DNA of 64,000 nucleotides from an uncultured Candidatus Saccharibacteria bacterium (GTDB taxonomy: Bacteria > Patescibacteriota > Minisyncoccia > Phycocordibacterales > Zambryskibacteraceae). This document shows, piece by piece, positions 3,707 through 59,946 of this stretch. The stretch covers positions 198,674 through 262,673 of the forward strand of contig CAYHLZ010000001.1 in assembly GCA_964357635.1 (NCBI GenBank). Reading direction: 5' to 3'. Below the pieces are notes generated by a model. The model was not told the DNA's origin, did no database searches, and saw only the letters and a program-made list of their open reading frames with translations. Each line of letters starts with the position of its first letter. The stretch's first letter is position 1. The translations under genes were made by a program, and so were the position numbers.

Positions 3707-3710
3707 ATAT

Positions 3711-5494: not shown

Positions 5495-5529
5495 CAAGGT
5501 GTTTGTTTTGTGATGTATAATATGAACAT

Positions 5530-7490: not shown

Positions 7491-10400
7491 TTACCTCCAC
7501 ATTGTAGATTTTGCCGTCTGATGACAGGATAATCTCTTTTGAGTCCAACATTTTACCATTTACCGCTATAGACTTAACTCCGCGACTCAATCCTAAAGGA
7601 TTTTTGACAGTTATTTTATAGCTGGTTGATTTGAAGAAATAAGAAACCTTAAACTCTTTCCAGTCTTTGGGGATGCATGGATTTATAATTAATTTTGACT
7701 TAGAGATTTTAATACCCAAAATAAACTCTAAAGTTGTTCGGTACATTAGCCCCGCAGCACCGGTGTACCATGTCCAACCGCCTCGCCCTTCATATGACGG
7801 TTTTGAATAAATATCTGATGCAACTACATATGGTTCAACTCTATATTGAGTCACCCCTTCTGGACTTCTTGAACGATTAATCGGATTTATAAGGTCAATG
7901 ATGTTTTTTGCCTTGTCCCCTTCTCCTAAGGTAGCAAAAGCCTGTGCCACCCATAGAGCCGCATGGTTATATTGAGAACCATTTTCTCTCACTCCAGGCG
8001 GGTAATCTCCTGTATAACCCACACGCATAGATGACTTTGCTATAGGGGGCGCCAATAACTTCAAAAGTTTTTTGTCTGGCATCAGATATTTTTCTACTGC
8101 GTCCATGGCCTCTCTTGCCCTTTCTTCTGTGCCAGCCCTACTTAAAACTGCCCACGACTGAGTAATTGAGTCAATTTTTATTTCTTCGTTTAAGTGGGAC
8201 CCTAGTGGCGCGCCATCATCAAAGTAAGCTCTTCTGTACCAAGACCCGTCCCAGCCGTGAATCTCAAGCGCATTTTTAATTGATTCGGCAATATTTCTAT
8301 ATTTATCAAGATGTTCAACATCATTTAATTTGGTACAAACTTCAGAAAATCTAGTCAAAATTGAATACAAGAAAAACCCAGACCAAACACTCTCTCCTTT
8401 ACCATTAATTCCAACTTCATTAAATCCGTCGTTCCAGTCCCCTTTACCAATAAGAGGTAGTCCGTGTTCGCCGAAGAATAACGACTTATCAATAGCACGC
8501 GTACAGTGCTCAAATAGCGAATACTTACCTTTTGTTATTTCTGGAACACCCACCCACTCTTTTTTGTTTTTAAAGTCTAGAGCTGGTCCTTCTAGAAACG
8601 GCATTCGCTCGTCAAAAATACTGAAATCACCGGTGATTTCAACATAAGAACATACTATATGTGGTAACCACAACTGATGATCTGACATAACAGAACGCAT
8701 GCCGAAATTATTATGTTCATGCCACCAAGTCTGCACATCACCTTCCACAAATTGATGCTCGGCAGCATCAAGAATCACTTTTCGCACTAAATCAGGATTA
8801 GAATAGATAAATGCGGTTATATCTTGCAGTTGGTCTCTAAAGCCAAAGGCGCCAGATGGCTGTGAATATCCGGCTTTTGTAAATATTCTTGATGATAGGA
8901 TTTGATAAAGAATCCAGTCATTAAACATGATGTCTAGAGACTCGTCGGGTGTAGAGATTGTAATGCTTCTAGAAATTTGGTCCCAATATCGTTCAACTTG
9001 GGCTAGCGCCTCTGTTATCTTTGGTAACTTACGATAAGTGGTTACTAGTTTGCGTATTTCCTCAATGTTTTCCCCTTCTCCGAGAAGAATAAGAACGCTC
9101 TTTTCTTCGCCAGACTTAAGATTGACTACTGTCTGAAGGCTCACGCTGTGGTCAGGTTCATATTTAATCTCATTAGAAAGTTTTTCTTTCTTTAGCGCCT
9201 CTGGAGATTTCACACTACCGCCTCGCCCAAAAAATTCTTCTCTACTTGTTGAGATAGCGTAATTCCCCTTGTTCATGTCAAGAAAAACTAAATTCCCTTG
9301 AAAATGGTTTCTGACAATGTTTTGTGTTATGACTGCCTTTGTCTTGTTGTCTGTACTCGTTATGAGAGAGCGTTTAGTTTGTTCGTAATTTACACCTAGT
9401 ACCAACTCAAAAAATCCTGTCACAGAAAGATTTCTTGTTTCAGTTCCAGTATTTTTTATTGTGAGTTTAAAAATCTTTATTTTCTCCGTTGTGGGAACAA
9501 ACATAAGCAGTTTGTGCTCCAGAGAACCGCGCTTATGCTCAAAAGTAGAGTACCCTCGCCCATGTTTTACAGTGTATGAGCGATCTTCTCCCAAGGGATA
9601 AGGAGTTGGAGACCACAGTTCTCCAGTTTTTTCGTCTCTAATGTAGAGAATCTCACCAGAAGCATCTAATAAACTATCCGCGGCCCAACTTGTCAGCCTG
9701 TTGTCGTAACTGTCAACAGACCAAGTATGGCTCGATCCCCCCTCGGACACCATAAATCCAAACTGAGGGTTAGAAATAACATTAACCCAAGAAGCGGGAG
9801 TTTTAAGGTCTTGAGAGAGATGCATTACATATTCTTTTTTAGTCTCATCAAACCCACCTAAACCATTGTAAAAAGATAAAGAATTTGATGGCTTTAGTGC
9901 CACTTCTTTTTCTGGCAACTCTTTACTTGATTTGAAAATGTTTGGCAATGGTTTGATATTCGGCTTTCTATTTCTTGTTTTTATTTGATATTCAAGGTTA
10001 CCTTCCTCACTATCAAAAATTGCCGAGGCGTTAAAGAGTATAGAGTGTCTGTCTTCTACTGACATGAAATTTGTTTTCAAGTGAAAAACCTTACCGTTAC
10101 TGTGATTATTTTCAACTAGTTTGTTGTAGCGAATGATGAAATCAATCTCGTCATGTAGTGTTTTTATATACCCACCAGGATGTTCGTTGTAGATAACTAT
10201 GTCAATATTTAGACCTTTGTATGTTAAATATCGGTAGCAGAGTAAAACGTTTTTAATAAAATTAATATCTTCTATATCCTTAATTTTAACTACTATGATG
10301 GGCGTATCTCCAGAAATTCCATATTTCCACAGCGAATGAATCATTGGGAAAGCTGGGCTAACGTTGGTAGGCTTATCGCGCAGGTAACCACCAGCCAAGA

Positions 10401-13400
10401 TTCGAGAAGCCAGTTCTTGAAAAATCAGTGCCTGTTCAGAAGAAATACCAAATCTTTTAAGAGCATGTACGCTTTCTTGATTTGCTTTATCAATAATACT
10501 TACTGGGTTTTTTAAATTGCGATACTTTTTAATTACGCTGGTAAGATCCTCTAGGTTTGTTGAATAAGCATTAATAAAAATTATTTTTGTAGACTCATTT
10601 GGTTTTAGGTTTATTTTTTTCTGTAGGCTGAAGATGGAGTCTAGGGTGTAGTCCTTATCGTGACTCACACTTTCTTCGTGGTTAAAAATGTATGGAGAAA
10701 CAGTTGAACCTCTTCTTCCTAAAAACGATTCGCGAGAAGTATTGTATTTTATAACCTCATTTTTAACCTTATTATCAGCCATAAAATGAGCAAAATAGAA
10801 CTTTTTTGTTTTGTCAGGTAAATTATTTCTAGTGAAAACTAAAGATTTGTGTTCTTTGAGGAATTCTGATTTGATGAAAAGTCTTTGATATGCGGGATGT
10901 CCGATATCTTCTCCTTGTGAAGCCAGCACTACCTCTCCGTAACTAGAAACTTCAAAAGACTGTTGAAACTCATTTTGATTTGTTATTGTTAATTCTCTAA
11001 TCTCAACATTATCTTCTGGTGGTACAGAGATTTTAAGGATAGTGTCAATACCTTTGTTTGTTTGGTAAAACTCTGCTTTGTTCTCAGAAAAGATAACTTT
11101 ATAATTCTTCCCCAGAACTTTGGTTGGATGAAAAGTTGGTGACCACAAGCTGTTATCGTCAAGGTTACGAACATAAAGAAATGTGCCGGAACCCTCAAGA
11201 ACCGCGTCTTCTTTAAACCGTGTAAGTAGCAGATTATTGTACTTACTGTAACCACATCCAGTATTGCTTATTGACACTGAATAATTTCCATTAGAAAGAA
11301 AGGCAAACCTCGGCGTTTGGGTTCTCAGTGGAATATATTGTTTTACTAAGTGTCCAGAGTCAGTCGTATTTGAATAATCAATTAACAATCTTGATGTAAT
11401 TTTTGTCGGTTTGACTGGAGTTATGGCCCTAACCTTTTCTTCAAGCAATACTTCAACCGACGCTACTAGCGGATCTTCGTTAAAGAGTTTTCTTATTCGT
11501 TTGTCGTTTAGGGCGTTATTAAGATTACTCATAATAAATCCTTGGTGGTGTGCATAGTAAACCTTAGTAGCTACCCCACCCCTCTTTCTTTCCTTACTGG
11601 GCGTGTAATCAATAGCATCATAAAAACCGTAGCTACTGACCCCGCCTTGAAACATAAGTTTCTCTAAATTTTTTATTGAATTCTTAGGTTCAAATAAAAG
11701 TGACAGTACTGTTGTATATGGTGCTACCACTAGATAGTCGCCCAGACTTCTTTTAAGCCCGATATTTGGAACACCAAATGTTTGATACTCGTAATTCTTG
11801 TTTGCATTTAAGAGGTTATAAGCAGACTCGCCCATCCCCCAAGGGATGCCATATTTTTTAGCGTAACTAATATGAGCTTTTACGGCGGCCCTAGCATTTT
11901 TCCCCAAAAGACTTTCGTTGGTAACATCTAGGAAAATTAAAGAAGTTACATGTTCAAACAGTGATCCGCCCCACGAATAAAGAACCGGATTACTTCCAGA
12001 TTTAACAAACTTTCTGTTCAAGTGGAACCAGTGCTTCTTGGGTGCTTGATTTTTTAGTACCGCAATAAAACTTATGATATTGGTTTCTGAAGCAAGGAAA
12101 TCATAATAAGAACTGTCAATCTTATTAAATGTTGCATTGTAACCTATGTGGAAGAGTCCTCTTTCTTTGTTATATAGAAATCTAAAATCTGTTTCTTCAA
12201 AGATTTTATCGCACTGAACCACTAGTTTGTTGTAACTGTCAAAAAGTTTTGATGCGTTTTGTTCAGAAATCTCTACAATTTCAAGGATTCCCAAAAACCA
12301 AGTACGCACACTTTCTTTGTCTGTTTCTTCCAGAGAATAGCTTTCAATTTCAACTTCAATATCTAAATCCCGCACTGCCAAACTTAGTCTGGATTCTTTT
12401 AAGTCTAGTAGTGTGGGACACTGATTGAGTAAATGGAGAAGCTTCTCATATTTAATAGAAAAGTTTTTATAGCGTTTTAATTTATGAATAGCCGGAAAAT
12501 CGGAAACAATCTTAGAAAACGAAAATAAGTCTCTTGTTTCTTTCCTATATAGACTAATCAGGTTCTCAAGATTCTGAATCCAATAGTAAATATCCTGCAT
12601 GTTTTCTTTGCTATCTACGGCAACCATTTCGGTAATCAGCTTTTTTAACTCATGACTAGAATCTGATAATGAGAATAAAATTTCTTCAAATCCGGAGAGG
12701 GTTAGTTCAATATTGTGTTGCTTAAGACTATTTAAGGCTTTGCTGGAACTATTAATGATTTTGTTTAATTGTTCAACTTTTTCATTGTCATGTTTTTTTG
12801 TCTTGTCTCGCCTTATATTCTCTATAACAACGCTTGATTCTTTTGCAATAGAGACAAGAATATCGCTTAATCCTTGAACAACATTCTCTCCGATAGTCGG
12901 CTTTTTTAGAATATCTAAAATTCCCTGCTTCAAAGTAATAATTGACGCTAAAAAGTTGGCGCTATCAACACTGGAAACATATTGAGGGATAAGGGGTTTT
13001 AATAGTTTAATGTCATACCAGTTATAAAAATGACCTTGATAACGCTCAAGTTTGTTCAAGCTGTTGAATGTGTTGGTAAGTCTAGTTTTCAACTCGCTAA
13101 TTCCTATGTAACCAAAATCGTAAGCAGAAAGTAGAGAGAGAAGACCCATACCAATATTGGTTGGGGAGGTGGTGTTGTTTGAAGCTATAAGTGTTTTTTC
13201 TTCTTGAAAATGATCTGGTATTAACCAGTTATTTTCTGCGTTTGTAAATTCTAAGAAGTAACGGGAGCTTTTACATGCGATATGACGAAGAAGTTCCCTT
13301 TCCTTGGGCATAAAACTAATTGTGTCGGGTCTAGGACGACCCAGCCCATAGGCAATAAGAGGAGAGAGAATCCAAAGTACGCTCCAAATATATATGGGAA

Positions 13401-16260
13401 ATGCAGACGCATTAATGTTAATAAAAATTGAAATAAGCAATAATGACCCGGCTTGCGTAAACCACATAGTTGAATAAATCTCAAGTAAGGTACCTTTCAG
13501 TTTTTTTGCCACTTCCCCAGAACTTTGCCATCTAAGCATGTGCTTTCTGGTCAAATATTTATGGATAAAAGTGCTTACAATGGCACTAATGGCAACTCCA
13601 GCGTTATAAAAAAGAAACACACCACTTACCAGCACCTGCACCACAGCAAATACTGATTCGTTGATAAACGAACTAATTTTATTTTTCAAAGTGGAACTTC
13701 TTTCCCATTTAAGCAGTCCAATACAAACAGAAAATATAAATGGAGAACTCAAGATTATGATTATATAAACACTCCCCCAATACATGTTTGGACTAGATAA
13801 GCCCCATGACAGTAAGAGAAAAGCTAGTGAAACTATCGGAATAGAGCTTCTTCTTAGGTTATCGAAAATTTTCCACCTTGAAACAAAAGAAAATTCATTT
13901 TTTATTAAAGTGCCGTTACCGAGCCGGACTCTTGGAAAAAGCCAGTCAATAATTTGCCAATCGCCACGTGTCCACCGATGTAGACGTGAGACATATTCAT
14001 GATATTGAGAAGGAAAATCATCAGATAATTGGATGTCTGTAGCTAGTCCTGCTCGAGCATACAATCCCTCTAAGAGGTCATGACTAAGAACCGTATTGTC
14101 AGGAATCTTCCCTGCCATCGTTTTTTCAAAAATGTCTATATCATAGATACCCTTACCGAAAAATATTCCACTTTTAAACAAATCTTGATACACATCAGCC
14201 ACCACACTAGAATACGAGTCTATGCCAGAGGCGGAGGAAAAAAATTTAGAAAATAATGATTTGTTAGATGTTTTTAGTGACGTGGATACGCGAGGCTGGA
14301 TTATGCCATAACCACCACGTACAACATTTGTTTTCTCATCAAGGATAGCTCTATTGAGAGGATGTGCGATGCACCCAATGAGCTGACTTGCCGACTCTTT
14401 GGGCATTCGCGTGTCTTCATCTAGAGTTATTACATACTTAATGTTTCTAGGTAATTGAGAGAATTTATTGTTATCAATTATGTATGTGGTGTTTTGAGAC
14501 CCACGAATTAGCTGGTTAAACTCTCTTAATTTGCCTCTCTTTCTTTCCCAACCCATAAAGACGTTTTCTTTTGGGTTCCACAGGCGTTTCCTGTAAAATA
14601 GAAAAAACTTTCTTTCTCCGTTAGAGTATTTTTTATTTAGTTTATTAATCTCATCAGATACATAGATGGTTAGCCCTCTATCTTTCGGCATACTTTCCTC
14701 TAGTGCATCGGTAAAGTCCATCAATAATCCGAAAAAGATATTTTTGTCCTTATTACTTAGGTAATTTACTTCAAGTCGCCTTAATAGTTCGTTAATAGAA
14801 CTTATGTTTCTAAACATCCCCGACGTAACCACAAAGGTTCTAAATTCATCAGGTACTCCATTTTTAAAATCAAACTTAGGTAATGATTTTATCGGCAAAA
14901 AACTTACGATTAAAGAATTTAATAAGTTGGTACCCACTTCACTACTCAAAATAAAGATGAGGACAGCTGTTAGAGCCAAATACAGTCCGCTGGTATATTG
15001 AGCAACATAAAAGGAGACAAGTGCTGATATGCTAAGACAAACCAAAGAGATGCTAGTAAAATAAAATAAACTGGGATTATTGAGCAGTAAACGCCCATAT
15101 TTTTCAAAAAAAGTAGGTTTATAGCTAAACTTTTTTTCAAGTTCATCTCTGCCTTGCCCAATAAGATAGTGGCCGATATGTGCTTTTATAGAACCGTCAT
15201 CTTCAATCTGCCCACTTTCTGTTTTTTTACTGTGAGTAAGTTTAAGAGCATGTTTGGCAATTTCTGCTTCGTGTATACCAGTTACGTCAGCAACCCGAAC
15301 AACCGCATCTTTGTATAGGTTCTTGGTGCGATCATCAAGTGCCGTATAAACTCCAGCGGGATCATTGTGAAATATTTTATCAACCACGTTTACGTTACCC
15401 ACAAAGTCGCCCCACTGCACTTGGTTTAACCATCGCAAGCTCTCAAAAATATTTGATATCAAAACTCTTCTCTTATCTCGCTCATCACCTTCAATCTTGG
15501 CTAAATCCTTTATATCAATCCCCTGCTTTAATAGGTTTGACTTCAACCATTTGGTAACAGGGCGCGCTACGGGTTCGTAATGGGACAGTCTCTGCAGAAG
15601 ATAGAAGCCGAAATTTACAGGGATAATGTTGTATTTTGAAGTAAGTTCGTGAATAATCTCGGAGAATTGAGAGATGCGTTTTTGTTTAGTTTTTTTTATT
15701 ATTTGTTTAAACCAGAACTCTGCTTCATTAAACTCTATGGAAGAAAGAAGAATTCGTTCTATTAGATATTGAATGTTCTCCACCAGAATTATCTTTAAAA
15801 TAGTGGGAGTGGCATAGAGCTCTCGGAGAGTTAGTGGGGTGTGTTTCTGATAGGAGTTTATGAACTTCTCCATTACTTGTTTATCAATTTCGTTCTTGTT
15901 TGCCTTCAGTAATTCAGAAAAAATGAAGTAGGTTCTGGGAACAAAGTTTTGTCCACTCTTAGAAATCTGTGGTAATTTCAGAAATTCTTTTTTTACAATT
16001 CCATTTTCAATGTCAGAAATCGCATTTTCTATAATATAAAAATTATCAACCAACTCTGCCTCTTGAGTCAGGTAACTAGAACTGGTAATACTTTTTATAA
16101 AATTATTGTAGAGTTTGTAGGTACTGCGAACCTTTTTTTGTAAGTTATTAAAAAATGATTCAGCGGGTTTCGGTTTGGAAAAAAGAATGCCTCTTTTACT
16201 TAAATCTGAAGCAAGTTTATCAATTTTCTTAAGATTAACTGCTTCTAATAAATCGCTCAT
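7477..16260 (-). CDS. Giant membrane glycosyltransferase/glycoside phosphorylase, cyclic beta-1,2-glucan synthetase (NdvB/Cgs)-like, GT84 plus GH94
   Basis: At 2927 aa it has an N-terminal region with multiple TM helices flanking a GT domain carrying the ITLDEDTRMP DxD motif, then a large C-terminal GH94-like (cellobiose-phosphorylase-like) beta-sandwich plus (alpha/alpha)6 region. One uninterrupted ORF. Confidence 0.7.
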   Translation of the reverse strand: MSDLLEAVNLKKIDKLASDLSKRGILFSKPKPAESFFNNLQKKVRSTYKLYNNFIKSITSSSYLTQEAELVDNFYIIENAISDIENGIVKKEFLKLPQISKSGQNFVPRTYFIFSELLKANKNEIDKQVMEKFINSYQKHTPLTLRELYATPTILKIILVENIQYLIERILLSSIEFNEAEFWFKQIIKKTKQKRISQFSEIIHELTSKYNIIPVNFGFYLLQRLSHYEPVARPVTKWLKSNLLKQGIDIKDLAKIEGDERDKRRVLISNIFESLRWLNQVQWGDFVGNVNVVDKIFHNDPAGVYTALDDRTKNLYKDAVVRVADVTGIHEAEIAKHALKLTHSKKTESGQIEDDGSIKAHIGHYLIGQGRDELEKKFSYKPTFFEKYGRLLLNNPSLFYFTSISLVCLSISALVSFYVAQYTSGLYLALTAVLIFILSSEVGTNLLNSLIVSFLPIKSLPKFDFKNGVPDEFRTFVVTSGMFRNISSINELLRRLEVNYLSNKDKNIFFGLLMDFTDALEESMPKDRGLTIYVSDEINKLNKKYSNGERKFFLFYRKRLWNPKENVFMGWERKRGKLREFNQLIRGSQNTTYIIDNNKFSQLPRNIKYVITLDEDTRMPKESASQLIGCIAHPLNRAILDEKTNVVRGGYGIIQPRVSTSLKTSNKSLFSKFFSSASGIDSYSSVVADVYQDLFKSGIFFGKGIYDIDIFEKTMAGKIPDNTVLSHDLLEGLYARAGLATDIQLSDDFPSQYHEYVSRLHRWTRGDWQIIDWLFPRVRLGNGTLIKNEFSFVSRWKIFDNLRRSSIPIVSLAFLLLSWGLSSPNMYWGSVYIIIILSSPFIFSVCIGLLKWERSSTLKNKISSFINESVFAVVQVLVSGVFLFYNAGVAISAIVSTFIHKYLTRKHMLRWQSSGEVAKKLKGTLLEIYSTMWFTQAGSLLLISIFININASAFPIYIWSVLWILSPLIAYGLGRPRPDTISFMPKERELLRHIACKSSRYFLEFTNAENNWLIPDHFQEEKTLIASNNTTSPTNIGMGLLSLLSAYDFGYIGISELKTRLTNTFNSLNKLERYQGHFYNWYDIKLLKPLIPQYVSSVDSANFLASIITLKQGILDILKKPTIGENVVQGLSDILVSIAKESSVVIENIRRDKTKKHDNEKVEQLNKIINSSSKALNSLKQHNIELTLSGFEEILFSLSDSSHELKKLITEMVAVDSKENMQDIYYWIQNLENLISLYRKETRDLFSFSKIVSDFPAIHKLKRYKNFSIKYEKLLHLLNQCPTLLDLKESRLSLAVRDLDIEVEIESYSLEETDKESVRTWFLGILEIVEISEQNASKLFDSYNKLVVQCDKIFEETDFRFLYNKERGLFHIGYNATFNKIDSSYYDFLASETNIISFIAVLKNQAPKKHWFHLNRKFVKSGSNPVLYSWGGSLFEHVTSLIFLDVTNESLLGKNARAAVKAHISYAKKYGIPWGMGESAYNLLNANKNYEYQTFGVPNIGLKRSLGDYLVVAPYTTVLSLLFEPKNSIKNLEKLMFQGGVSSYGFYDAIDYTPSKERKRGGVATKVYYAHHQGFIMSNLNNALNDKRIRKLFNEDPLVASVEVLLEEKVRAITPVKPTKITSRLLIDYSNTTDSGHLVKQYIPLRTQTPRFAFLSNGNYSVSISNTGCGYSKYNNLLLTRFKEDAVLEGSGTFLYVRNLDDNSLWSPTFHPTKVLGKNYKVIFSENKAEFYQTNKGIDTILKISVPPEDNVEIRELTITNQNEFQQSFEVSSYGEVVLASQGEDIGHPAYQRLFIKSEFLKEHKSLVFTRNNLPDKTKKFYFAHFMADNKVKNEVIKYNTSRESFLGRRGSTVSPYIFNHEESVSHDKDYTLDSIFSLQKKINLKPNESTKIIFINAYSTNLEDLTSVIKKYRNLKNPVSIIDKANQESVHALKRFGISSEQALIFQELASRILAGGYLRDKPTNVSPAFPMIHSLWKYGISGDTPIIVVKIKDIEDINFIKNVLLCYRYLTYKGLNIDIVIYNEHPGGYIKTLHDEIDFIIRYNKLVENNHSNGKVFHLKTNFMSVEDRHSILFNASAIFDSEEGNLEYQIKTRNRKPNIKPLPNIFKSSKELPEKEVALKPSNSLSFYNGLGGFDETKKEYVMHLSQDLKTPASWVNVISNPQFGFMVSEGGSSHTWSVDSYDNRLTSWAADSLLDASGEILYIRDEKTGELWSPTPYPLGEDRSYTVKHGRGYSTFEHKRGSLEHKLLMFVPTTEKIKIFKLTIKNTGTETRNLSVTGFFELVLGVNYEQTKRSLITSTDNKTKAVITQNIVRNHFQGNLVFLDMNKGNYAISTSREEFFGRGGSVKSPEALKKEKLSNEIKYEPDHSVSLQTVVNLKSGEEKSVLILLGEGENIEEIRKLVTTYRKLPKITEALAQVERYWDQISRSITISTPDESLDIMFNDWILYQILSSRIFTKAGYSQPSGAFGFRDQLQDITAFIYSNPDLVRKVILDAAEHQFVEGDVQTWWHEHNNFGMRSVMSDHQLWLPHIVCSYVEITGDFSIFDERMPFLEGPALDFKNKKEWVGVPEITKGKYSLFEHCTRAIDKSLFFGEHGLPLIGKGDWNDGFNEVGINGKGESVWSGFFLYSILTRFSEVCTKLNDVEHLDKYRNIAESIKNALEIHGWDGSWYRRAYFDDGAPLGSHLNEEIKIDSITQSWAVLSRAGTEERAREAMDAVEKYLMPDKKLLKLLAPPIAKSSMRVGYTGDYPPGVRENGSQYNHAALWVAQAFATLGEGDKAKNIIDLINPINRSRSPEGVTQYRVEPYVVASDIYSKPSYEGRGGWTWYTGAAGLMYRTTLEFILGIKISKSKLIINPCIPKDWKEFKVSYFFKSTSYKITVKNPLGLSRGVKSIAVNGKMLDSKEIILSSDGKIYNVEVIMGD

Positions 16261-29848: not shown

Positions 29849-29888
29849 CCTCTAATTATACAACCTTTCGTACTAGACTGGCTTAGGC

Positions 29889-46044: not shown

Positions 46045-46113
46045 TGATTAAATTATACCAAACTTGCGGGTTGTGGGACTTGGAGTCTTCACTACTGGGA
46101 AACCCTCGGGTAT

Positions 46114-46386: not shown

Positions 46387-46472
46387 GAATCAGGGTTTCT
46401 CGGGGACTTCTTCTCTATATTTAGCTGGCCGTAGGCACTGATGAGCCTTCGTCCAGCGAAGGTGAAGAAGTG

Positions 46473-46543
46473 CTGCGGGACTTGGACTCGAACCAAGATA
46501 CTCGCCTCCAAAGGGCGATGTCCTACCATTAGACGATCCCGCA
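46473..46543 (-). tRNA. tRNA-Gln (anticodon UUG)
   Basis: Reverse complement TGCGGGATCGTCTAATGGTAGGACATCGCCCTTTGGAGGCGAGTATCTTGGTTCGAGTCCAAGTCCCGCAG. Identical to the tRNA at 5424 except in the anticodon arm; loop CTTTGGA. Confidence 0.85.
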
Positions 46544-46589
46544 ATGTAATACAATTTATCAGAAAAACCTCTAATTTTCCACACCCCCT

Positions 46590-46859
46590 CTATTCTAGTG
46601 TTCTCAAGAACTTCAGAACAGACTTTCCATCATTTGTGAGTGTGTGACGAACGCTGTTATTATCATTTCGCTTCATTATAAGACCCGAGATAGTTAGCCG
46701 ACGAATATGGTCCGCCCCTGTTTTATAATTAATCTTCAGGGCATCCGACACCTCAACCACAGATAACTCTGGTGATCTTGCTAATAATTCAAGGATTTCA
46801 ATCCTTCTGTGGTTTGAAAACCCTCTAACTAATCTTTCTAATTGTCTAGGCTTTCTCAT
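46590..46859 (-). CDS. ArsR/SmtB-family HTH transcriptional regulator
   Basis: Winged-helix region RIEILELLARSPELSVVEVSDALKINYKTGADHIRRL; 89 aa. Confidence 0.65.
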   Translation of the reverse strand: MRKPRQLERLVRGFSNHRRIEILELLARSPELSVVEVSDALKINYKTGADHIRRLTISGLIMKRNDNNSVRHTLTNDGKSVLKFLRTLE

Positions 46860-46891
46860 TGTATTCTGGTGTTCTTGAGAACATAAGAATG

Positions 46892-47941
46892 CTACTTGAT
46901 AGATTCAGCTAGCGCAAGCTCTAGAGCAAGCTCAGGGATAGAGGTTCTCCCGCTGTCTTCGTAGGCGGTGATGAAGCGTAAGAGCGTCTCTGCCGTCAGG
47001 TCTTTCTCGGCCTTCTCGGCAAGAGATTTTAGGAATTTAAATTCGTCTTCCCCCACCTCTTCTTCAATGTCTTTCTCCATACCAGCCTTCAGACGAAGAA
47101 GAAAGAGGAGTCGCAGTTTCTCTAAAATAAGTTTGGCAAAGAGTTTTGAATCGGCATTCGCCTCCCCTGCTTTCTTTATCGCCTTCAATCCCTTCTCCAA
47201 GTTTTTCTCCACTACTGCCGAGATAACTTCCCGCATCAGTTCTCCCCTCGGCGCACCCGTCACCGCTTCTACTTCCTCTCTTGTAATCTTTTTATCACTC
47301 GTGGATGAAAGAATTTTCTCCAAGATTCCATGCACATCGCGGAATGAGCCGTCTCCGAGAAGAGCAATGAGTTCTGCCGCTTCTTTTTCAAGCACCACAC
47401 CCTCTTTCTTGGCAACAGAGGAGATAAAGTCTTTGAGTATTGCTTGAGTCGGTTGTCTAAATCTGAATGTCTGACAGCGCGAGATGACTGTCTCCGGCAC
47501 TTTCTCAAGTTCGGTGGTGGCGAAGATAAAGACAACGTGCTTGGGTGGTTCCTCCAGAGTTTTCAAAAAGGCGTTCCACGCTTCTTTGGTGAGCATGTGC
47601 GTTTCGTCAATGATATAGACCTTGTACTTGGACTCAAATGGCAAAGTGTTCACCGACTCCCTGATTTCACGGACATCATCTATGCCCCGGTTAGAAGCAG
47701 CATCCATCTCCACAAGGTCGTTTGCCGATGTGCCAATCTCACGTGCAAGAATTCTTGCCACAGAAGTTTTCCCTGTACCTCTCGGACCAGAAAAGAGATA
47801 GGCGTGCGAGATGTTACCGAGTTTGAGTGCTCCCTCCAAGACTTTCACAATATGGTCTTGCCCGACAACATCACCGAATTTCTCTGGTCTATACCTTCTA
47901 TATAAAACTTGGGGTGACTTCTCCGCTTTTTTCATAGACAT
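46892..47941 (-). CDS. dnaX: DNA polymerase III subunit gamma/tau (short form)
   Basis: YRPEKFGDVVGQDHIV...AYLFSGPRGTGKTS, with a Walker B/sensor pattern (IIDETHMLT). Confidence 0.85.
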   Translation of the reverse strand: MSMKKAEKSPQVLYRRYRPEKFGDVVGQDHIVKVLEGALKLGNISHAYLFSGPRGTGKTSVARILAREIGTSANDLVEMDAASNRGIDDVREIRESVNTLPFESKYKVYIIDETHMLTKEAWNAFLKTLEEPPKHVVFIFATTELEKVPETVISRCQTFRFRQPTQAILKDFISSVAKKEGVVLEKEAAELIALLGDGSFRDVHGILEKILSSTSDKKITREEVEAVTGAPRGELMREVISAVVEKNLEKGLKAIKKAGEANADSKLFAKLILEKLRLLFLLRLKAGMEKDIEEEVGEDEFKFLKSLAEKAEKDLTAETLLRFITAYEDSGRTSIPELALELALAESIK

Positions 47942-47950
47942 TAGTATAAC

Positions 47951-48907
47951 TTATTCGCCAAGAAACTCCGAAATAATCTTTTCCACCTCTTCTCCCCCAT
48001 CTTGCTCCATGAGTCGCGCACGTAAGTCTGCCGCGCCGTCAAAGCCGTTTACATATGCCTTGAAGTGCTTTTTCATAATGGCAAAGCTCTTGACGCTACC
48101 TAGGAGTTTTTCAAAAAGTTTTGTGTGTTCCACAAGTACTTTGAGTTTCTCTTCTGTTGTCGGTAAGTGTTTTGAGAAGAGCCACGGGTTACCAAATATT
48201 CCTCTCCCAATCATGACCCCATCGCAACCTGTCTCTTCACACTTCTTTTTTGCATCGTCAATGTCTACAACGTCACCATTACCAAAGATTAGAGTGTCTA
48301 CTCCTGCCTCATCACGTATCTTTACCGCCTCTTTCACAAGGTCCCACCTCGCAGGCACTTTTGACATTTCTTTTCTCGTGCGAGCATGAATCGTTACCAC
48401 GGCAGGTTCTTCTTTCAAAATTTCTGGAAGCCATTTATCCAGTTCTGGTTTGTTGTAACCGGTTCTTGCTTTGAGTGAGACAGGCAAATCCCCTGCACCC
48501 TCTTTGGCCGCTTTTATAAGAACTCTCGCAAGCTTTGCGTCCTTCATAAGTTTTGCTCCCGCACCCTGTTTTTCTATCGTCCTGTCTGGGCAACCCATAT
48601 TTATATCCACCCCGTCAAAGCCGAGTTTCCGCGCCAACTCCGCCGCCTTTTTCATATGCTCTGGATTTGAAGTGAAGAACTGTGCCACTATCGGGCGTTC
48701 CGCTTCCGAGTATTCCAAGTCTTTCAAAAGTTTTTTTCTCCCCTCCTCTGGCGCAAGAACCAGACCATCGGCTGAAACGAACTCGGTCCACATCACATCA
48801 GGCTTGCCATACTTGGCGATAACGCTTCGGAAGGCAGCATCTGTGACATTGGCCATGGGTGCCAGCGCCATTACAGGCTTTTTCAAACTTTGCCAGAAGT
48901 TACTCAC
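47951..48907 (-). CDS. dus: tRNA-dihydrouridine synthase
   Basis: ALAPMANVTDAAFR N-terminus, a TIM-barrel FMN site (DINMGCP) and the catalytic-Cys region; 318 aa. Confidence 0.8.
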   Translation of the reverse strand: MSNFWQSLKKPVMALAPMANVTDAAFRSVIAKYGKPDVMWTEFVSADGLVLAPEEGRKKLLKDLEYSEAERPIVAQFFTSNPEHMKKAAELARKLGFDGVDINMGCPDRTIEKQGAGAKLMKDAKLARVLIKAAKEGAGDLPVSLKARTGYNKPELDKWLPEILKEEPAVVTIHARTRKEMSKVPARWDLVKEAVKIRDEAGVDTLIFGNGDVVDIDDAKKKCEETGCDGVMIGRGIFGNPWLFSKHLPTTEEKLKVLVEHTKLFEKLLGSVKSFAIMKKHFKAYVNGFDGAADLRARLMEQDGGEEVEKIISEFLGE

Positions 48908-54147: not shown

Positions 54148-55641
54148 ATGGCGAGTCCTTCTCCTGAAGATATTGCGCTCGTCAAGAAAGCTTTTTCACT
54201 TGCTCGTCGCGCCAATGAAGGACGGGTGAGATTTTCTGGCGAGCCAAATTTGAGACACTTAGTAGAGTCTGCAAAAACTCTTGCAGAACTCGGCACTGGC
54301 ACCGCCACCATTGTCGCAGGACTACTTCATGATTCTATAGAAGATGCTGGCGTCCAAAGAGAGGTAATCGTAAAAGAATTCGGGGAAGAAGTTGCCTTCC
54401 TCATTGACGGAGTATCAAAACTTGGACACTTAAAGTACAAAGGGGCCGACAGACATAACGAAAGTCTTCGCAAACTCTTCGTAGCGATGTCAGAGGATAT
54501 TAGAGTTCTTCTCATTAAGCTTGCGTGCCGTTTACACAATATGAGAACTCTCGCCTATGTGCCGAAAGATAAACAAGGGCGTCTCGCCAGAGAGTCACTT
54601 GAGATATATGCGCCCATAGCTTACCGTCTAGGCATCAGAAAGATCAATCGTGAACTTGAAGACCTATCTTTTCCTTATGTTTATCCCAAGGAGTATGAGG
54701 AGATGAGAAAAACGTTGAAAGAAAGACACTTTGATAGAACTGAAAGTTTGGAAAAATTTTCTCGCTCTGTGAAAAAGGCTCTGGCTAAAGAAGGACTGAC
54801 TAAGGTTAAAACAGAGTATAGAGTAAAAGGACTTTATAGTCTTTATAAAAAGTATTTAAGATACGACCGAGATCTTGAAAAGATATATGACCTTAGTGCC
54901 ATGCGTATCTTGGTTGACTCTACGGTGGACTGCTACCGAGTTCTAGGAACAATACATGCACGCTGGAGACCTCTACCCGGTCGTATCAAGGATTACATCT
55001 CTGACCCCAAGGCAAACGGTTATCAAGCACTACACACCACTGTTTTCATTGGTGATGGCAACATTGTGGAAGTCCAGATTAAAACTCAAGATATGCACAA
55101 ATATTCAGAATACGGTATTGCCTCACACCTTTCTTATAAAGGAGGTAAAGAAAACAAAGATGTCTTGGCTTGGGTTCACGCTCTCCTACCAAAATCAACC
55201 CGGCCGAATAATGAAGGAGACCTGTCTGCCGGCAAGGCAGGAAACATGGACGTGCCCGCTTGGATAAAGGAACTTGCCCAGTATGAAGAACCTTCAAAAG
55301 ATTACAAACTTTTTCGAGAAGGTCTCACCAGCGATTTCTTTAGCCACAGGATATTCGTCTTCTCGCCCAAAGGAGATGTGGTGGACCTGCCAAATGACTC
55401 TACACCAATAGATTTTGCCTATTCAATACATTCAGATATTGGAAACCAAATGGCAGGGGCGAAGGTGAACGGTAAACTTGTCTCACTTGATAGCACGCTT
55501 CATAACGGAGATATTGTCATGATTGTGACGAAAGAGAATGCTAAACCAAACCGTAAATGGTTGGAGATGGCAAAGACCTCGCTTGCTCGTCGCCATATCC
55601 GACACAGACTTACTGAACTAAAAGACTTGAACCGCGACTAG
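54148..55641 (+). CDS. RelA/SpoT-homolog (p)ppGpp synthetase/hydrolase, short form (HD plus synthetase plus TGS, no ACT)
   Basis: HD motif (GLLHDSIED), synthetase motif (RILVDSTVDCYRVLGTIH...HTTV), and a TGS-like C-terminus (VNGKLVSLDSTLHNGDIVMIV). An RBS AAGGAG sits 1 nt before the chosen ATG. Confidence 0.8.
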   Translation: MASPSPEDIALVKKAFSLARRANEGRVRFSGEPNLRHLVESAKTLAELGTGTATIVAGLLHDSIEDAGVQREVIVKEFGEEVAFLIDGVSKLGHLKYKGADRHNESLRKLFVAMSEDIRVLLIKLACRLHNMRTLAYVPKDKQGRLARESLEIYAPIAYRLGIRKINRELEDLSFPYVYPKEYEEMRKTLKERHFDRTESLEKFSRSVKKALAKEGLTKVKTEYRVKGLYSLYKKYLRYDRDLEKIYDLSAMRILVDSTVDCYRVLGTIHARWRPLPGRIKDYISDPKANGYQALHTTVFIGDGNIVEVQIKTQDMHKYSEYGIASHLSYKGGKENKDVLAWVHALLPKSTRPNNEGDLSAGKAGNMDVPAWIKELAQYEEPSKDYKLFREGLTSDFFSHRIFVFSPKGDVVDLPNDSTPIDFAYSIHSDIGNQMAGAKVNGKLVSLDSTLHNGDIVMIVTKENAKPNRKWLEMAKTSLARRHIRHRLTELKDLNRD

Positions 55642-56561
55642 ATACTAAACTTACTAACAGAGTAGAGAGAATCGTCATCATCTGCCATGATTCTTTCTTC
55701 TTCGGTTAGTGCTGGAGCATTCTCTACAGACACTTCTGTACCTTCATCAGAAACAATTCTTTCAAGAAGTGCGCGTAAATCATCCTTATCAAAAAAGTCT
55801 ATGGTCACTCGCCCACCCGCCTCTTTCTTCTCAATTCTCACTCGAGTACCCAACTTTTCTTTGAACTGGTCTTCTATCTCTATGAGCTCTTGGTCTATGA
55901 GCTTTCTGGCGCGTTCTACGGCAATGTGGCGAGCGATACTCTCGGCTTCTCGGACATTGAGTTTCTTTGCCACAATTTCTTTGAAAAGAGTTTCCTGTTC
56001 TTGAGGTCTATCAATAAGCATCATTAATGGTCGGGTGTGTCCTTCGGTAATCTGATTCTTTGAAAGCGCTTCAATGATGTATTCCGGCAAAGTAAGAATG
56101 CGAAGGGAGTTTGAGACATATTCGCGACTCTTGCCGACCTTCTTACCAATCTCGTGGTGTTTAAAGTTAAATTCCCTTACTAGGCGGCCAAAGGCACGGG
56201 CTCGGTCAACTGGAGTAAGGTCTTCACGTTGAATGTTTTCTATTATGGCAAGCTCAAGCTTCATCAGGTCCGTCTCCTCACCTGTGCGGATAAGAACCGG
56301 TACCTGTGAGAGTCCTGCAAGACGAGCGGCGCGAAGGCGTCGTTCTCCTGCGACCAGTTCATACTCAACCCCAAGTCCTCCATCTTCTTTTAAAACTTCG
56401 TTACGAGTAACTACAAGCGCTTGGAGTACGCCGTACTGACGAATAGAATCTGCTAGGGCTCTCAACTGTGTTTCATCAAACTCTCGGCGAGGCTGATATG
56501 GGTTTGGTTTTATTTTATCCACCTCAACCCAGAAAACGGCATCGTTATAGAATCGCGACAT
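55638..56561 (-). CDS. parB: ParB/Spo0J-family partition (nucleoid occlusion-like) protein
   Basis: ParB N-terminal motifs (GVLQALVV, VAGERRLRAARLAGL) plus an HTH region. Confidence 0.75.
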   Translation of the reverse strand: MSRFYNDAVFWVEVDKIKPNPYQPRREFDETQLRALADSIRQYGVLQALVVTRNEVLKEDGGLGVEYELVAGERRLRAARLAGLSQVPVLIRTGEETDLMKLELAIIENIQREDLTPVDRARAFGRLVREFNFKHHEIGKKVGKSREYVSNSLRILTLPEYIIEALSKNQITEGHTRPLMMLIDRPQEQETLFKEIVAKKLNVREAESIARHIAVERARKLIDQELIEIEDQFKEKLGTRVRIEKKEAGGRVTIDFFDKDDLRALLERIVSDEGTEVSVENAPALTEEERIMADDDDSLYSVSKFSI

Positions 56562-56609
56562 AACTAGATTTTAACACGATTTTTTTGTAGAGTTAAGTCA
56601 CTTATCCTT

Positions 56610-56693
56610 GCCGGAGTGGCGGAATGGCAGACGCGCACGACTCAAAATCGTGTCTCGCAAGGGGTGTGGGTTCAAGTCCCACCTCCGGCACCA
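56610..56693 (+). tRNA. tRNA-Leu (anticodon CAA), type II with a long variable arm; CCA encoded
   Basis: Acceptor GCCGGAG/CTCCGGC, anticodon stem CACGA/TCGTG with loop CTCAAAA (A36-A37-A38), a long variable arm, T stem GTGGG/CCCAC, discriminator A, CCA. Confidence 0.85.
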
Positions 56694-57557
56694 ATGAAGA
56701 AAAAGATACTGGTAATACTTGGACCCACGGCCTCTGGGAAAAGTGCGTTGGGAGTAAGACTTGCTAAAAAATTTGGCGGAGAAATTATCTCTGCTGATTC
56801 TAGGCAAATTTATCGCGGGCTTGATATCGGGACAGGGAAAATCACTAAAAAAGAAATGAGGGGTGTTAAGCACCATCTTCTTGACGTGGCCAGTCCCAAG
56901 GAGCAGTTCTCCGTAGCTGAGTATAAAAAATTGGCAGAGGAGAAAATAAACAAAATTAAGTTCCCTATTGTTGTGGGCGGTACTGGATTCTATATAGACG
57001 CTCTTGCAGGAAAGGCTAGTTATCCTGATGTGCCCCCAAACAAAAAGTTAAGAAAAAGGCTTGGCCAGGAATCTGCAGATGAGCTCTTTAAGATTCTAAA
57101 GAAAAAAGATTCACGGAGGGCACAAACAATAGACCGACATAATAAGGTTCGTTTAATAAGAGCACTTGAAATCATTGAGGTACTGGGCCAAGTTCCACCT
57201 ATTCTTAAGTTCTCAAGAACATCAGAATACCAATTTATATACATTGGATTGAGGCCAGATGATTTGGAAAGAAGAATTTACAAAAGGCTCGTAAAAAGGA
57301 TTTTGGGAATAATTCGGGAAACAAAGAAATTGCCCTTCAAGCGCGCTTACGAATTGGGGCTTGAATACCGCTATGCTGCTTTATATTTAAAGAAAAAAAT
57401 AAGTAAAAAGGAAATGGTCGAGAGACTTAACAGAGCCATCCGAGAGTACGCCAAGCGACAGATGACCTGGTTCAAACGCAACAAAGAAATTAAATGGTTC
57501 AAACCAGAAGAATATAAAAAGATAGAAAAGTTCGCCAAATCAAGACTTTTGGCTTAA
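56694..57557 (+). CDS. miaA: tRNA dimethylallyltransferase (start corrected to MKKKILVILGPTASGKS; the ORF-track N-terminus is translated tRNA)
   Basis: P-loop GPTASGKS, the ADSRQIYRGLDIGT motif, and a length of 287 aa. The ATG directly abuts the tRNA-Leu CCA. Confidence 0.85.
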   Translation: MKKKILVILGPTASGKSALGVRLAKKFGGEIISADSRQIYRGLDIGTGKITKKEMRGVKHHLLDVASPKEQFSVAEYKKLAEEKINKIKFPIVVGGTGFYIDALAGKASYPDVPPNKKLRKRLGQESADELFKILKKKDSRRAQTIDRHNKVRLIRALEIIEVLGQVPPILKFSRTSEYQFIYIGLRPDDLERRIYKRLVKRILGIIRETKKLPFKRAYELGLEYRYAALYLKKKISKKEMVERLNRAIREYAKRQMTWFKRNKEIKWFKPEEYKKIEKFAKSRLLA

Positions 57558-57569
57558 TGTTAGAGACAA

Positions 57570-58784
57570 ATGAGTATAGACAAGATATTAAAAGAGCTTG
57601 AGAAGTGCGAGTACAAAGTATCCACCGACACCAGGAAAGATATTAGTGGCTCTATTTATTTTGCTCTGAAGGGAGAAACCCATGACGGTAACCACTTTGT
57701 AAAAGATGCTCTGGAAAAAGGTGCGGTAGTGGCTGTTACGGATAAAAAAGAAAACGCTGGTGAGAATGTGTATGTGGTAGAAGACAGTTTAAAAACGCTT
57801 CAAGAAGTAGCGAGAAAATATAGAGAACAATTCAATATTCCTATTATTGCTATAGGTGGCTCAAATGGGAAAACGACAAGTAAAGACTTGGTACGCGATG
57901 TATTGAAAACGAAATATAAAGTTTTTGCCACAGCGGGTAATTTAAATAACGAAATCGGTGTCCCCCTTTCAATACTTTCCATAAAAAAAGATTGTGAGAT
58001 AGCAATAATTGAAGTTGGCGCTAACCGCAGAGGTGATCATAAGTTCTTACTTGATATGGTGAGACCAACACACGTTGCGGTTACAAATAACGGCATGGAT
58101 CACCTTGAAGGATTCGGCTCCCCTGAAGGTGTAAGGATGGCCAATAAAGAAATATATGATTGGGCACTCCAACACTCGGCCACTGCTTTTGTAAATAAGA
58201 AACACCCAGACTTGGTTCTGGATTCAGAAGGAGTTTCGCGTGTTTTGTATCCTGAAAAAGAGCTTGAATATAAAACGAAACTTGCCGGCGATTACAACAG
58301 AGAAAACATTGAACTTGCTTTGGCCGTGGGAAACAGTATGGATGTAAAGACAGAAGATGCCCTTAGAGCTATTGCTTCATATGAACCGTCCGGAAACCGC
58401 TCACAAGTTATAACAAAAAATGGGATAAATTTTGTCGTGGATTGCTACAATGCTAATCCTTCAAGCATGAAGGCTTCTCTTGAAAGTTTCTTGAAAGATT
58501 CCAAGAATCATAAAGGTGTTGTCTTGGGAGACATGCTAGAACTCGGAAAATATTCTCTAGAAGAACATAAGAAAGTGGTTAAATATCTTTCAGAGCAAAA
58601 ATTAGATTTTCTGGTATTTGTCGGAGAGGAGTTTAAAAAAGCGCTTGTTGGTGAGAGTTTAAAACATCTGTGGTTTCCAGATTCAGAAAAAGCGAAAGAC
58701 TGGTTTAGAGGCGAAAAATTTGACGGCTTCACCTTTCTCCTTAAGGGTTCGCGAGGGATGAAAATAGAAAAAATCTTAGAGTAA
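57570..58784 (+). CDS. murF: Mur ligase family protein, MurF-like (UDP-MurNAc-tripeptide--D-Ala-D-Ala ligase)
   Basis: IIAIGGSNGKTTSKD P-loop, GNLNNEIGVP motif and a Mur ligase C-terminal domain; shorter than a typical MurF. Confidence 0.6.
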   Translation: MSIDKILKELEKCEYKVSTDTRKDISGSIYFALKGETHDGNHFVKDALEKGAVVAVTDKKENAGENVYVVEDSLKTLQEVARKYREQFNIPIIAIGGSNGKTTSKDLVRDVLKTKYKVFATAGNLNNEIGVPLSILSIKKDCEIAIIEVGANRRGDHKFLLDMVRPTHVAVTNNGMDHLEGFGSPEGVRMANKEIYDWALQHSATAFVNKKHPDLVLDSEGVSRVLYPEKELEYKTKLAGDYNRENIELALAVGNSMDVKTEDALRAIASYEPSGNRSQVITKNGINFVVDCYNANPSSMKASLESFLKDSKNHKGVVLGDMLELGKYSLEEHKKVVKYLSEQKLDFLVFVGEEFKKALVGESLKHLWFPDSEKAKDWFRGEKFDGFTFLLKGSRGMKIEKILE

Positions 58785-58787
58785 CTT

Positions 58788-58861
58788 TGGCGGGCGATGA
58801 GGGAATCGAACCCCCGACAGCGGATTTGGAGGCCGCAGTTATGCCACTTAACTAATCGCCC
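58788..58861 (-). tRNA. tRNA-Trp (anticodon CCA); CCA end encoded
   Basis: Reverse complement GGGCGATTAGTTAAGTGGCATAACTGCGGCCTCCAAATCCGCTGTCGGGGGTTCGATTCCCTCATCGCCCGCCA; loop CTCCAAA. The anticodon stem has one C-U mismatch. Confidence 0.75.
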
Positions 58862-58884: not shown

Positions 58885-59058
58885 CTAAGCCTTTTTCTCC
58901 TTATAAACGGTGTGTTTGCGGACAATAGGATTATATTTCTTTAATTCAAGTTTGCGCTCTACAGATTTCCTGTTTTTGCGCGAGTAGTAGGTGTGACCCT
59001 TGCCCTTCCCCTTTTCGTCCCCTACAGAGACTAGTTTTATTAGATGGTCTTGCGACAT
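58885..59058 (-). CDS. rpmG: 50S ribosomal protein L33 (Cys-free form), start at MSQDHLIK
   Basis: GHTYYSRKNRKSVERKLELKKYNPIVRKHTVYKEKK matches the L33 C-terminus. Adjacent to tRNA-Trp, as in many bacteria. Confidence 0.75.
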   Translation of the reverse strand: MSQDHLIKLVSVGDEKGKGKGHTYYSRKNRKSVERKLELKKYNPIVRKHTVYKEKKA

Positions 59059-59902: not shown

Positions 59903-59920
59903 CTGTGTGTTTTATTATAC

Positions 59921-59946
59921 CCTGCCTGCCTGCCGGCAGGCAGGGC
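59921..59946. repeat. GC-rich perfect palindrome in a divergent intergenic region
   Basis: CCCTGCCTGCC-TGCC-GGCAGGCAGGG, with 11-bp arms, between divergently transcribed genes. Confidence 0.6.

Follow-up and report, generated by a model that had tools for sequence, protein, structure and literature searches.

Co-transcription of tRNAs and mRNAs is classical in bacteria, as in the thrU-tyrU-glyT-thrT-tufB operon of Escherichia coli, and in the E. coli thrS operator a tRNA mimic serves the autoregulation of a tRNA-binding enzyme. In mitochondria, tRNA excision by RNase P and RNase Z releases leaderless mRNAs (PMC3790967), and in Actinobacteria, Deinococcus and archaea leaderless mRNAs are produced by transcription initiation at the start codon (PMC4633059, PMC3160421). 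Here we analyzed a 64-kb stretch of contig CAYHLZ010000001.1 from an uncultured Candidatus Saccharibacteria bacterium, denoted as the window, in which a tRNA-Leu(CAA) gene ends exactly where the start codon of miaA begins. The product of miaA, tRNA dimethylallyltransferase, is predicted to transfer a dimethylallyl group to N6 of A37, and the adjoining tRNA is one of its predicted substrates. We consider that 3' processing of this tRNA probably yields a leaderless miaA mRNA from a tRNA-led transcription unit, a reading to which we lean with modest confidence. The features of the locus are collected in Table 1.

The arrangement is analogous to the tufB operon in that a tRNA gene precedes a protein gene on one strand, both apparently served by one promoter, and the tRNA would be excised. 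While the E. coli operon has a spacer and a start codon led by a Shine-Dalgarno (SD) sequence, the two genes here join with a 0-nt spacer and no SD, and a leaderless mRNA would have to be defined by tRNA 3' processing; in addition, the product is an enzyme whose predicted modification target is that very tRNA. As in mitochondrial tRNA punctuation, the coding sequence (CDS) butts against the tRNA, and we propose from this genomic abutment that excision would define the mRNA ends and allow leaderless translation. In contrast with mitochondria, the genome here is bacterial and free-standing, most of its genes carry promoters of their own, only a minority of tRNAs border directly on a CDS, and no sign of stop-codon completion by polyadenylation was seen here. 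The locus would share with transcription-initiated leaderless mRNAs an AUG at or near the 5' end and the lack of an SD, and the window shows their typical signature of a -10 box 6-8 nt before start codons, whereas the miaA 5' end would come from RNA processing and carry a 5' monophosphate. The likeness to thrS is that a tRNA ligand or mimic of the enzyme lies just upstream of its own start codon. However, the element here is a real functional tRNA, and it shows no sign of MiaA binding or repression. In the literature we found no report of zero-spacer tRNA-CDS junctions feeding bacterial leaderless translation, although this absence is not proof of novelty, and likewise none of miaA-tRNA linkage or of leaderless dominance in the candidate phyla radiation (CPR)/Patescibacteria.

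Over positions 56610-56690, up to the discriminator, the tRNA gene matched Rfam RF00005 with 60 bits (E=1e-11; gathering threshold 29). Read from the sequence, the acceptor stem is GCCGGAG/CTCCGGC (7 bp), the discriminator A is at 56690, and the CCA is genome-encoded at 56691-56693. The anticodon CAA occupies 56643-56645 and is followed by A37 (56646) and A38 (56647) in the 7-nt loop CUCAAAA, closed by the 5-bp stem CACGA/TCGTG. MiaA substrates are UNN-reading tRNAs with A36-A37-A38, a 7-nt anticodon loop and a 5-bp stem, all of which are present here, and the A36-A37-A38 motif makes tRNA-Leu(CAA) a predicted substrate. The preliminary description had identified the tRNA as tRNA-Leu(CAA) with this motif, with which ARAGORN, the Rfam score and the loop sequence all agree. 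To place the locus among relatives (given L numbers), species-representative genomes were scanned with a MiaA alignment, which gave at least 80 Paceibacterota/Parcubacteria loci at 38-66% identity; close relatives, under-sampled in that scan, were supplemented by contigs encoding close homologues and by the N-terminal extensions of protein clusters. A metagenome scan with the single MiaA protein gave 8 loci. Across 46 orthologous tRNA-Leu(CAA) genes, compensatory double changes were found at 19 of the 23 cloverleaf pairs, and both the CUCAAAA loop and A73, the discriminator that is an identity element for leucyl-tRNA synthetase (LeuRS) in E. coli, were invariant. Since the same cloverleaf is maintained by compensatory changes in these orthologues, the element is, as judged from covariation, a functional tRNA and not a mimic.

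The miaA ATG (56694-56696) follows the tRNA CCA immediately, so that the direct abutment given in the preliminary description was confirmed to the base. Window MiaA scored 196.6 bits against IPPT (PF01715; cut-off 23.6) and is 100% identical to an annotated MiaA (P0001) of a "Patescibacteria group bacterium" metagenome-assembled genome (MAG), and its nearest named relatives are from Minisyncoccia and Zambryskibacteria; the genome is Zambryskibacteria-like and belongs to the Paceibacteria (Patescibacteria/CPR). Invariant in 41 aligned MiaA sequences are G10, P11, T12, G15, K16 and S17 of the P-loop, together with D35, S36, R37, Q38 and Y40 of the DSRQ[VI]Y motif. The P-loop GPTASGKS begins 9 codons after the window ATG with no in-frame start in between, and all 40 aligned homologues (62-80% identity) start 8-12 residues before GPTASGKS. 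As such, the ATG at 56694 is, judged from the aligned N-termini, the only credible miaA start. A downstream or alternative start, such as one preceded by a ribosome-binding site (RBS), was looked for and none was found; the N-terminal alignment and the P-loop distance rule it out.

A mechanical open reading frame (ORF) with a GTG start, 56616-57557 (+), 313 aa, traverses the tRNA and begins MAEWQTRTTQNRVSQGVWVQVPPPAPMKKK, which is the tRNA read as protein; the earlier view that the N-terminus MAEWQTRTT is nothing but translated tRNA thus proved right. Taken at face value, this ORF would favor an annotation artefact, in which miaA would really start at another place, or the supposed tRNA would be a pseudogene or a leader element resembling a tRNA. 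We hold this to be extremely improbable and rejected it on the start alignment and on the tRNA covariation, considering that the P-loop distance leaves no room for another start and that the tRNA has a full cloverleaf at 60 bits with 19/23 pairs covarying in orthologues. In 13 of the 120 closest MiaA protein clusters, the N-terminal extension is translated tRNA-Leu that ends exactly at the Met (the slash marks the junction: ...DSKSCG...SSILSPGT/MKK, ...LPAP/M, ...SSAQ/M). Gene callers repeatedly extend MiaA into the tRNA, which is of practical consequence for annotation.

The start signals of the window as a whole were then compared with random positions. GGAG or GAGG, the SD core, occurred in the 20 nt upstream of 5/52 window genes against 7.5% at random positions, which is the background level, while a TATAAT match of at least 5/6 ending 3-12 nt before the start was found for 17 of 60 window genes (28%) against 4.2% of random positions. 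The typical -10 box of the window lies 6-8 nt before the start codon, and boxes stand directly before the start in, for example, CTATAATTAGTTC and TGTATAATTAGAGG, each of which is followed by ATG. Sites of this kind include 2538-2557, 5510-5529, 29849-29868, 46045-46064 and 59903-59922. Because SD motifs are at background and -10 boxes stand a short distance before starts, the genome appears to be dominated by leaderless genes, the signature expected where leaderless or near-leaderless initiation is the norm.

None of these signals precedes miaA. The 25 nt upstream of its ATG are the T-arm and acceptor strand of the tRNA and contain no TAnnnT or other -10-like hexamer (score 0); no SD was found upstream of miaA, nor any terminator-like site between tRNA-Leu and miaA. 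An internal promoter within the tRNA, which would give a leaderless miaA transcript directly, was rejected, as there is no -10 hexamer and the + strand consensus scan was empty there. Since no spacer, promoter or terminator separates the two genes, co-transcription from the tRNA promoter would be the only reasonable way for miaA to be expressed. The co-transcription put forward in the preliminary description is thus upheld by the 0-nt spacer, the common strand and the lack of a -10 box or terminator, as far as sequence can indicate. The tRNA-Leu/miaA promoter itself is tentatively assigned to a weak -10 box, TAGAGT: a transcription start about 7 nt after it would leave about 10 nt of leader ahead of the tRNA, and a TTGTAGA motif at this box is common to the window and L093, while the consensus promoter scan called no + strand promoter at 56588-56593. 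For the divergent parB, a separate -10 box, TAAAAT, stands 6 nt ahead of the start codon and a promoter-like site lies at 56596-56568 (-), and the order ParB, tRNA-Leu, miaA is common to the window, L091, L092 and L093. On the other side, the Mur ligase gene starts 12 nt after the miaA stop without an upstream -10 box and is probably the last gene of the tRNA-Leu/miaA unit; it is not at this position in relatives and was inserted in the window. ARAGORN called four tRNA genes in the window, of which the two tRNA-Gln genes do not abut a CDS, and a -10 box of its own precedes each gene downstream of them.

In the processing route that we propose, the unit would run from the promoter through a short leader, tRNA-Leu(CAA) and miaA to the Mur ligase gene. 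RNase P would trim the tRNA-Leu 5' end, and an endonucleolytic cut at the tRNA 3' end would free the tRNA and create the miaA 5' end in one step. This cut would be of the RNase Z type, placed after the discriminator, or after the encoded CCA as in Thermotoga, so that the mRNA would begin at the AUG or 2-4 nt before it (a 0-4-nt leader) and the ribosome would load on the processed miaA mRNA in leaderless mode. MiaA synthesis would thereby be tied to transcription and processing of the tRNA gene, a bacterial version of tRNA punctuation. The preliminary description had expected RNase P to leave the near-leaderless miaA message. This attribution was wrong: RNase P generates the 5' end of the tRNA and not that of miaA, for which an RNase Z-type 3' endonuclease or another nuclease is needed.

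As for the position of the cut, tRNase Z of T. maritima cleaves exactly after A76 of CCA-containing precursors (PMC1540738), and some archaeal tRNase Z enzymes process CCA-containing precursors (PMC7479834). A precise cut of the T. maritima type would leave the A of AUG as the miaA 5' end; the difference is that most tRNA genes of this lineage lack CCA, a full CCA being encoded by 19/115 tRNA genes in the examined loci and by 2/4 in the window. With so few encoded CCAs, the lineage must trim 3' trailers and add CCA by a CCA-adding enzyme, and the CCA-poor tRNA genes point to a conventional cut after the discriminator, which would leave CCA-AUG, CA-AUG and similar mRNA ends. In L092 and several protein clusters (...SPGT/M), the would-be CCA overlaps the ATG, sharing the A in L092, so that only a discriminator-proximal cut followed by CCA addition would give both an intact tRNA and an AUG. 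In almost all tRNA genes of the window and of L001-L092, the discriminator is followed by C, with CAA, CAG and CAT as common trailers; this near-constant C may reflect a processing or CCA-addition preference.

The tRNA-led layout is not confined to miaA. With miaA excluded, an ATG ORF of 150 aa or more began between -1 and +5 nt from the end of 6/106 tRNAs in these loci, compared with 1.1% for random positions (p=0.0014), and therefore tRNA-led genes appear to be a recurrent design in these genomes. Other tRNAs that abut genes (1-5 nt) are at L036:3414-3490, L080:4856-4927(-), L010:3907-3978(-), L001:3869-3940(-), L052:4800-4886 and L092:3948-4020(-). In L036, a TsaD-like gene follows tRNA-Trp, and in L092 the product of the gene at 3443-3943 (-) matches Acetyltransf_1.

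We then examined how far the linkage of tRNA-Leu(CAA) and miaA extends among relatives. Within 2.5 kb of miaA, ARAGORN found tRNA-Leu(CAA) 40 times, tRNA-Trp(CCA) 36 times, tRNA-Tyr(GUA) 11 times and others 10 times, including one Ser(GGA), in 80 loci among the matches listed. A + strand tRNA-Leu(CAA) ends no more than 12 nt before the miaA start in L001, L003, L017, L027, L038, L039, L052, L091, L092 and L093. In the window family, the discriminator end GGCA is followed by CCA and ATG in the window, by CA and ATG in L091, by CC and ATG in L092, and by CACA and ATG in L093; the spacer after the discriminator thus stays at 2-4 nt while its sequence drifts. CAA is also among the junction sequences before ATG in relatives, and their spacers of up to 12 nt are A-rich and without SD. 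The linkage occupies a single large clade of about 60 loci on a rough neighbor-joining (NJ) tree of MiaA and is missing from the sister group of about 25, and abutment of tRNA-Leu and miaA is scattered over at least five subclades. Where gaps of 250-430 nt separate the two genes, the inserted ORFs are unrelated to one another, by which a conserved small gene at this place was rejected and which suggests insertions into an ancestral tight junction. The preliminary description had left conservation as a point to check: the linkage is kept in many related genomes, but it is not universal and is absent in the closest relatives. For L078 (Patiriisocius sp.), L043 (Humimicrobiaceae), L066 (Bdellovibrionales) and many "uncultured Candidatus Saccharibacteria" loci, the name in the record does not fit the Paceibacteria-like MiaA and the tRNA-Leu/tRNA-Trp synteny, which points to probable mis-binning or mislabelling of these contigs.

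The gene directly after miaA in relatives is usually tRNA-Trp(CCA); its loop, CUCCAAA, likewise has A36A37A38. The same-strand tRNA-Trp lies 6-9 nt after the miaA stop in L082, L086, L089, L090 and L095, and overlaps the last 10-11 nt of miaA in L012, L091, L093, L094 and L097 (L091:3421-3430, L093:3364-3373, L094:3373-3382, L097:3388-3397 and L012 at about 3465-3475). In the overlapping loci, the miaA stop TAG is U8-A9-G10 of tRNA-Trp, so RNase P cleavage would leave a non-stop miaA mRNA; the overlap in L091, L093, L094 and L097 recalls the incomplete stop codons of mitochondria. In L091 and L093, tRNA-Leu, miaA and tRNA-Trp are on one strand and abut on both sides, with spacers of zero or below around miaA.

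Several observations weigh against a processing-made miaA mRNA. tRNA-Leu(CAA) carries a full encoded CCA, and model bacteria mature CCA-containing precursors by a downstream endonucleolytic cut and 3' exonucleases, a route that would destroy the miaA start. The 5' monophosphate of a processed mRNA is, moreover, the preferred substrate of the RNase J 5'-3' exonuclease; RNase J was found at 756-2531, and no RNase Z gene was seen within the 64-kb window. Encoded CCA usually inhibits bacterial RNase Z as an anti-determinant (PMC3161902), and CPR generally retain RNase J, RNase III and PNPase (PMC12641178). In the closest relatives found, L089 and L090 (MiaA 77-79% identity), and in L095-L098, a cation-ATPase gene lies upstream and no tRNA-Leu was found within 2.5 kb of miaA; in L089, L090 and L095 the ATPase gene as called stops 1 nt short of the miaA ATG, and in L096-L098 it overlaps miaA by 61 nt. 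Since miaA has its own -10 box in L007 and L072, the latter with a terminator hairpin after the tRNA as well, co-transcription is not conserved everywhere. For the window, we infer both co-transcription and the cleavage site from the layout of the genes. The tRNA and miaA could instead be neighbors by descent in a compact genome, with miaA translated independently of SD on an unprocessed or partly degraded precursor, where an A-rich unstructured start region helps initiation and tRNA maturation and translation compete for the transcript. We regard this explanation as possible, though rather doubtful. It fits a genome that is about 89% coding with tiny spacers and the usual block of RNase Z by encoded CCA, and internal genes such as the Mur ligase gene have neither SD nor promoter, so that SD-independent internal initiation or re-initiation must exist. 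The tRNA-Trp over the miaA stop also suggests that unprocessed RNA gets translated, as full processing would give non-stop mRNA. However, a folded 7-bp GC-rich acceptor stem at -1 would occupy the space that the 30S subunit needs, there is no ORF upstream of the tRNA to supply re-initiating ribosomes, and the window-family spacer has been kept at 0-4 nt despite indels, which leaderless but not internal initiation would demand. Because the genome is mainly leaderless and miaA lacks its own promoter, a leaderless miaA mRNA made by processing is favored.

A separate matter is whether the pairing of enzyme and substrate was selected. In such a coupling, miaA would be kept among its own substrates, with tRNA-Leu(CAA) upstream, tRNA-Trp(CCA) downstream and tRNA-Tyr(GUA) nearby, so that enzyme output tracks substrate supply, possibly with feedback through MiaA binding to unmodified precursor anticodon loops. 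Leu(CAA), Trp(CCA), Tyr(GUA) and Ser(GGA) account for 88/97 of the nearby tRNA genes counted above, and all copies of these four tRNAs in the examined loci have A36A37A38, while only about 20% of tRNA species are expected to read UNN codons; the proximity also outlasts inversions of either tRNA and insertions of unrelated genes. UUG, the codon of the adjacent tRNA, makes up 8/29 Leu codons of miaA (28%) against 13% in 18 other window genes, a weak signal from a small sample that was not robust enough to use. However, the tRNA counts are phylogenetically dependent and would be explained by one ancestral block, for which two independent neighbors would both be UNN readers by chance at about 0.04 (two draws at about 20%). 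tRNA-Trp and tRNA-Tyr commonly travel with rpmG and secE, and rpmG is adjacent here. A non-substrate, tRNA-Arg(CCG) with G36, abuts the miaA ATG at 2-3 nt in two loci (L042:317-391 and L067:2426-2501), and later arrivals are mostly non-substrates (Arg(CCG) in L042 and L067, three Pro, Leu(CAG), Val and two Gly, against one Ser(GGA)). No tRNA lies near miaA in the sister group, the upstream tRNA has been lost in the closest relatives, and other genes in these genomes abut tRNAs as well (6/106). Furthermore, the anticodon loop and the acceptor end with the start codon lie at opposite tips of the L-shaped tRNA, so that a steric feedback is not obvious. Considering the Arg(CCG) loci, the other abutting genes and the tRNA-less closest relatives, the proposal that the layout owes its existence to the tRNA being a MiaA substrate finds no support beyond a coincidence of about 4%, and we judge selected coupling to be quite unlikely. 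The substrate pairing has the look of an ancestral layout passed on by descent, not of one for which selection can be demonstrated; what is conserved would be the expression architecture, a tRNA leading a promoter-less gene, together with inherited synteny, with substrate selection as a possible addition. As a side observation, another tRNA-modifying enzyme, Dus, lies near a tRNA gene, in a row with a DNA polymerase III delta'-like gene, a small ORF and tRNA-Gln(UUG) at 46472-48907 (-).

Extended to a large Paceibacteria clade, a more speculative picture would have miaA punctuated by tRNAs between two of its substrates, with its mRNA existing only as a by-product of tRNA excision. The 5' end and the leaderless translatability would come from tRNA 3' processing, the 3' end or stop codon would go missing when RNase P cleaves tRNA-Trp, and MiaA output would be governed by the maturation of those tRNAs, with a possible feedback on it, tRNA 3' processing being a regular CPR route to leaderless mRNAs. 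We think it unlikely that this picture holds in full.

Table 1. Coordinates of the tRNA-Leu(CAA)/miaA locus and flanking genes in the window
Feature	Position	Strand	Evidence
parB	55638-56561	-	Pfam ParB_N, HTH_ParB, ParB_C
Candidate -10 box TAGAGT of the tRNA-Leu/miaA promoter	56588-56593	+	Read from sequence; weak, tentative
tRNA-Leu(CAA), type II, long variable arm	56610-56693	+	ARAGORN; Rfam tRNA RF00005
miaA, tRNA dimethylallyltransferase, 287 aa	56694-57557	+	Pfam IPPT 7e-58, also IPT
Mur ligase family gene (MurF-like, 404 aa)	57570-58784	+	Pfam Mur_ligase_M, Mur_ligase_C, Mur_ligase
tRNA-Trp(CCA), loop CUCCAAA (A36A37A38), encoded CCA	58788-58861	-	ARAGORN; Rfam 59 bits
rpmG (ribosomal protein L33)	58885-59058	-	Pfam Ribosomal_L33 7e-13; 57-aa form as in relatives

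Beyond the Mur ligase gene, tRNA-Trp(CCA) of the window is convergent to the unit, and rpmG is 23 nt upstream of it on the minus strand. The stop of the Mur ligase gene (ending at 58784) and the CCA end of tRNA-Trp (58788) are 3 nt apart, too close for a terminator on either strand to fit between them. At 57534-57553, a weak hairpin resembling a terminator (6 bp, T-poor tail) overlaps the last miaA codons, before the Mur ligase gene. In the minimum free energy (MFE) fold of 56600-56760, the dominant element was a 12-bp pairing (one G-U) of the T-arm, 56666-56677, with miaA codons 9-12, 56717-56728, which is the P-loop coding region. Since z-scores in 11 other abutting loci were not consistently negative and the pairing is not conserved, an alternative regulatory structure was set aside and the duplex was treated as chance. 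Elsewhere in the window, a giant 2927-aa ORF at 7477-16260 (-) combines GH94 supersandwich, catalytic and glucoamylase-like domains, reminiscent of cyclic beta-1,2-glucan synthase/glycan phosphorylase.

If processing of tRNA-Leu(CAA) indeed supplies the miaA mRNA, the locus would be a bacterial counterpart of mitochondrial tRNA punctuation, in the CPR/Patescibacteria, whose expression signals are almost unstudied. The layout of an enzyme beside its substrate would offer a simple test case for the co-regulation of tRNA supply and modification capacity, even though the pairing may be an inherited coincidence. In that case, the junction would also show how SD-less bacteria with leaderless translation express promoter-less genes that lie behind a tRNA.

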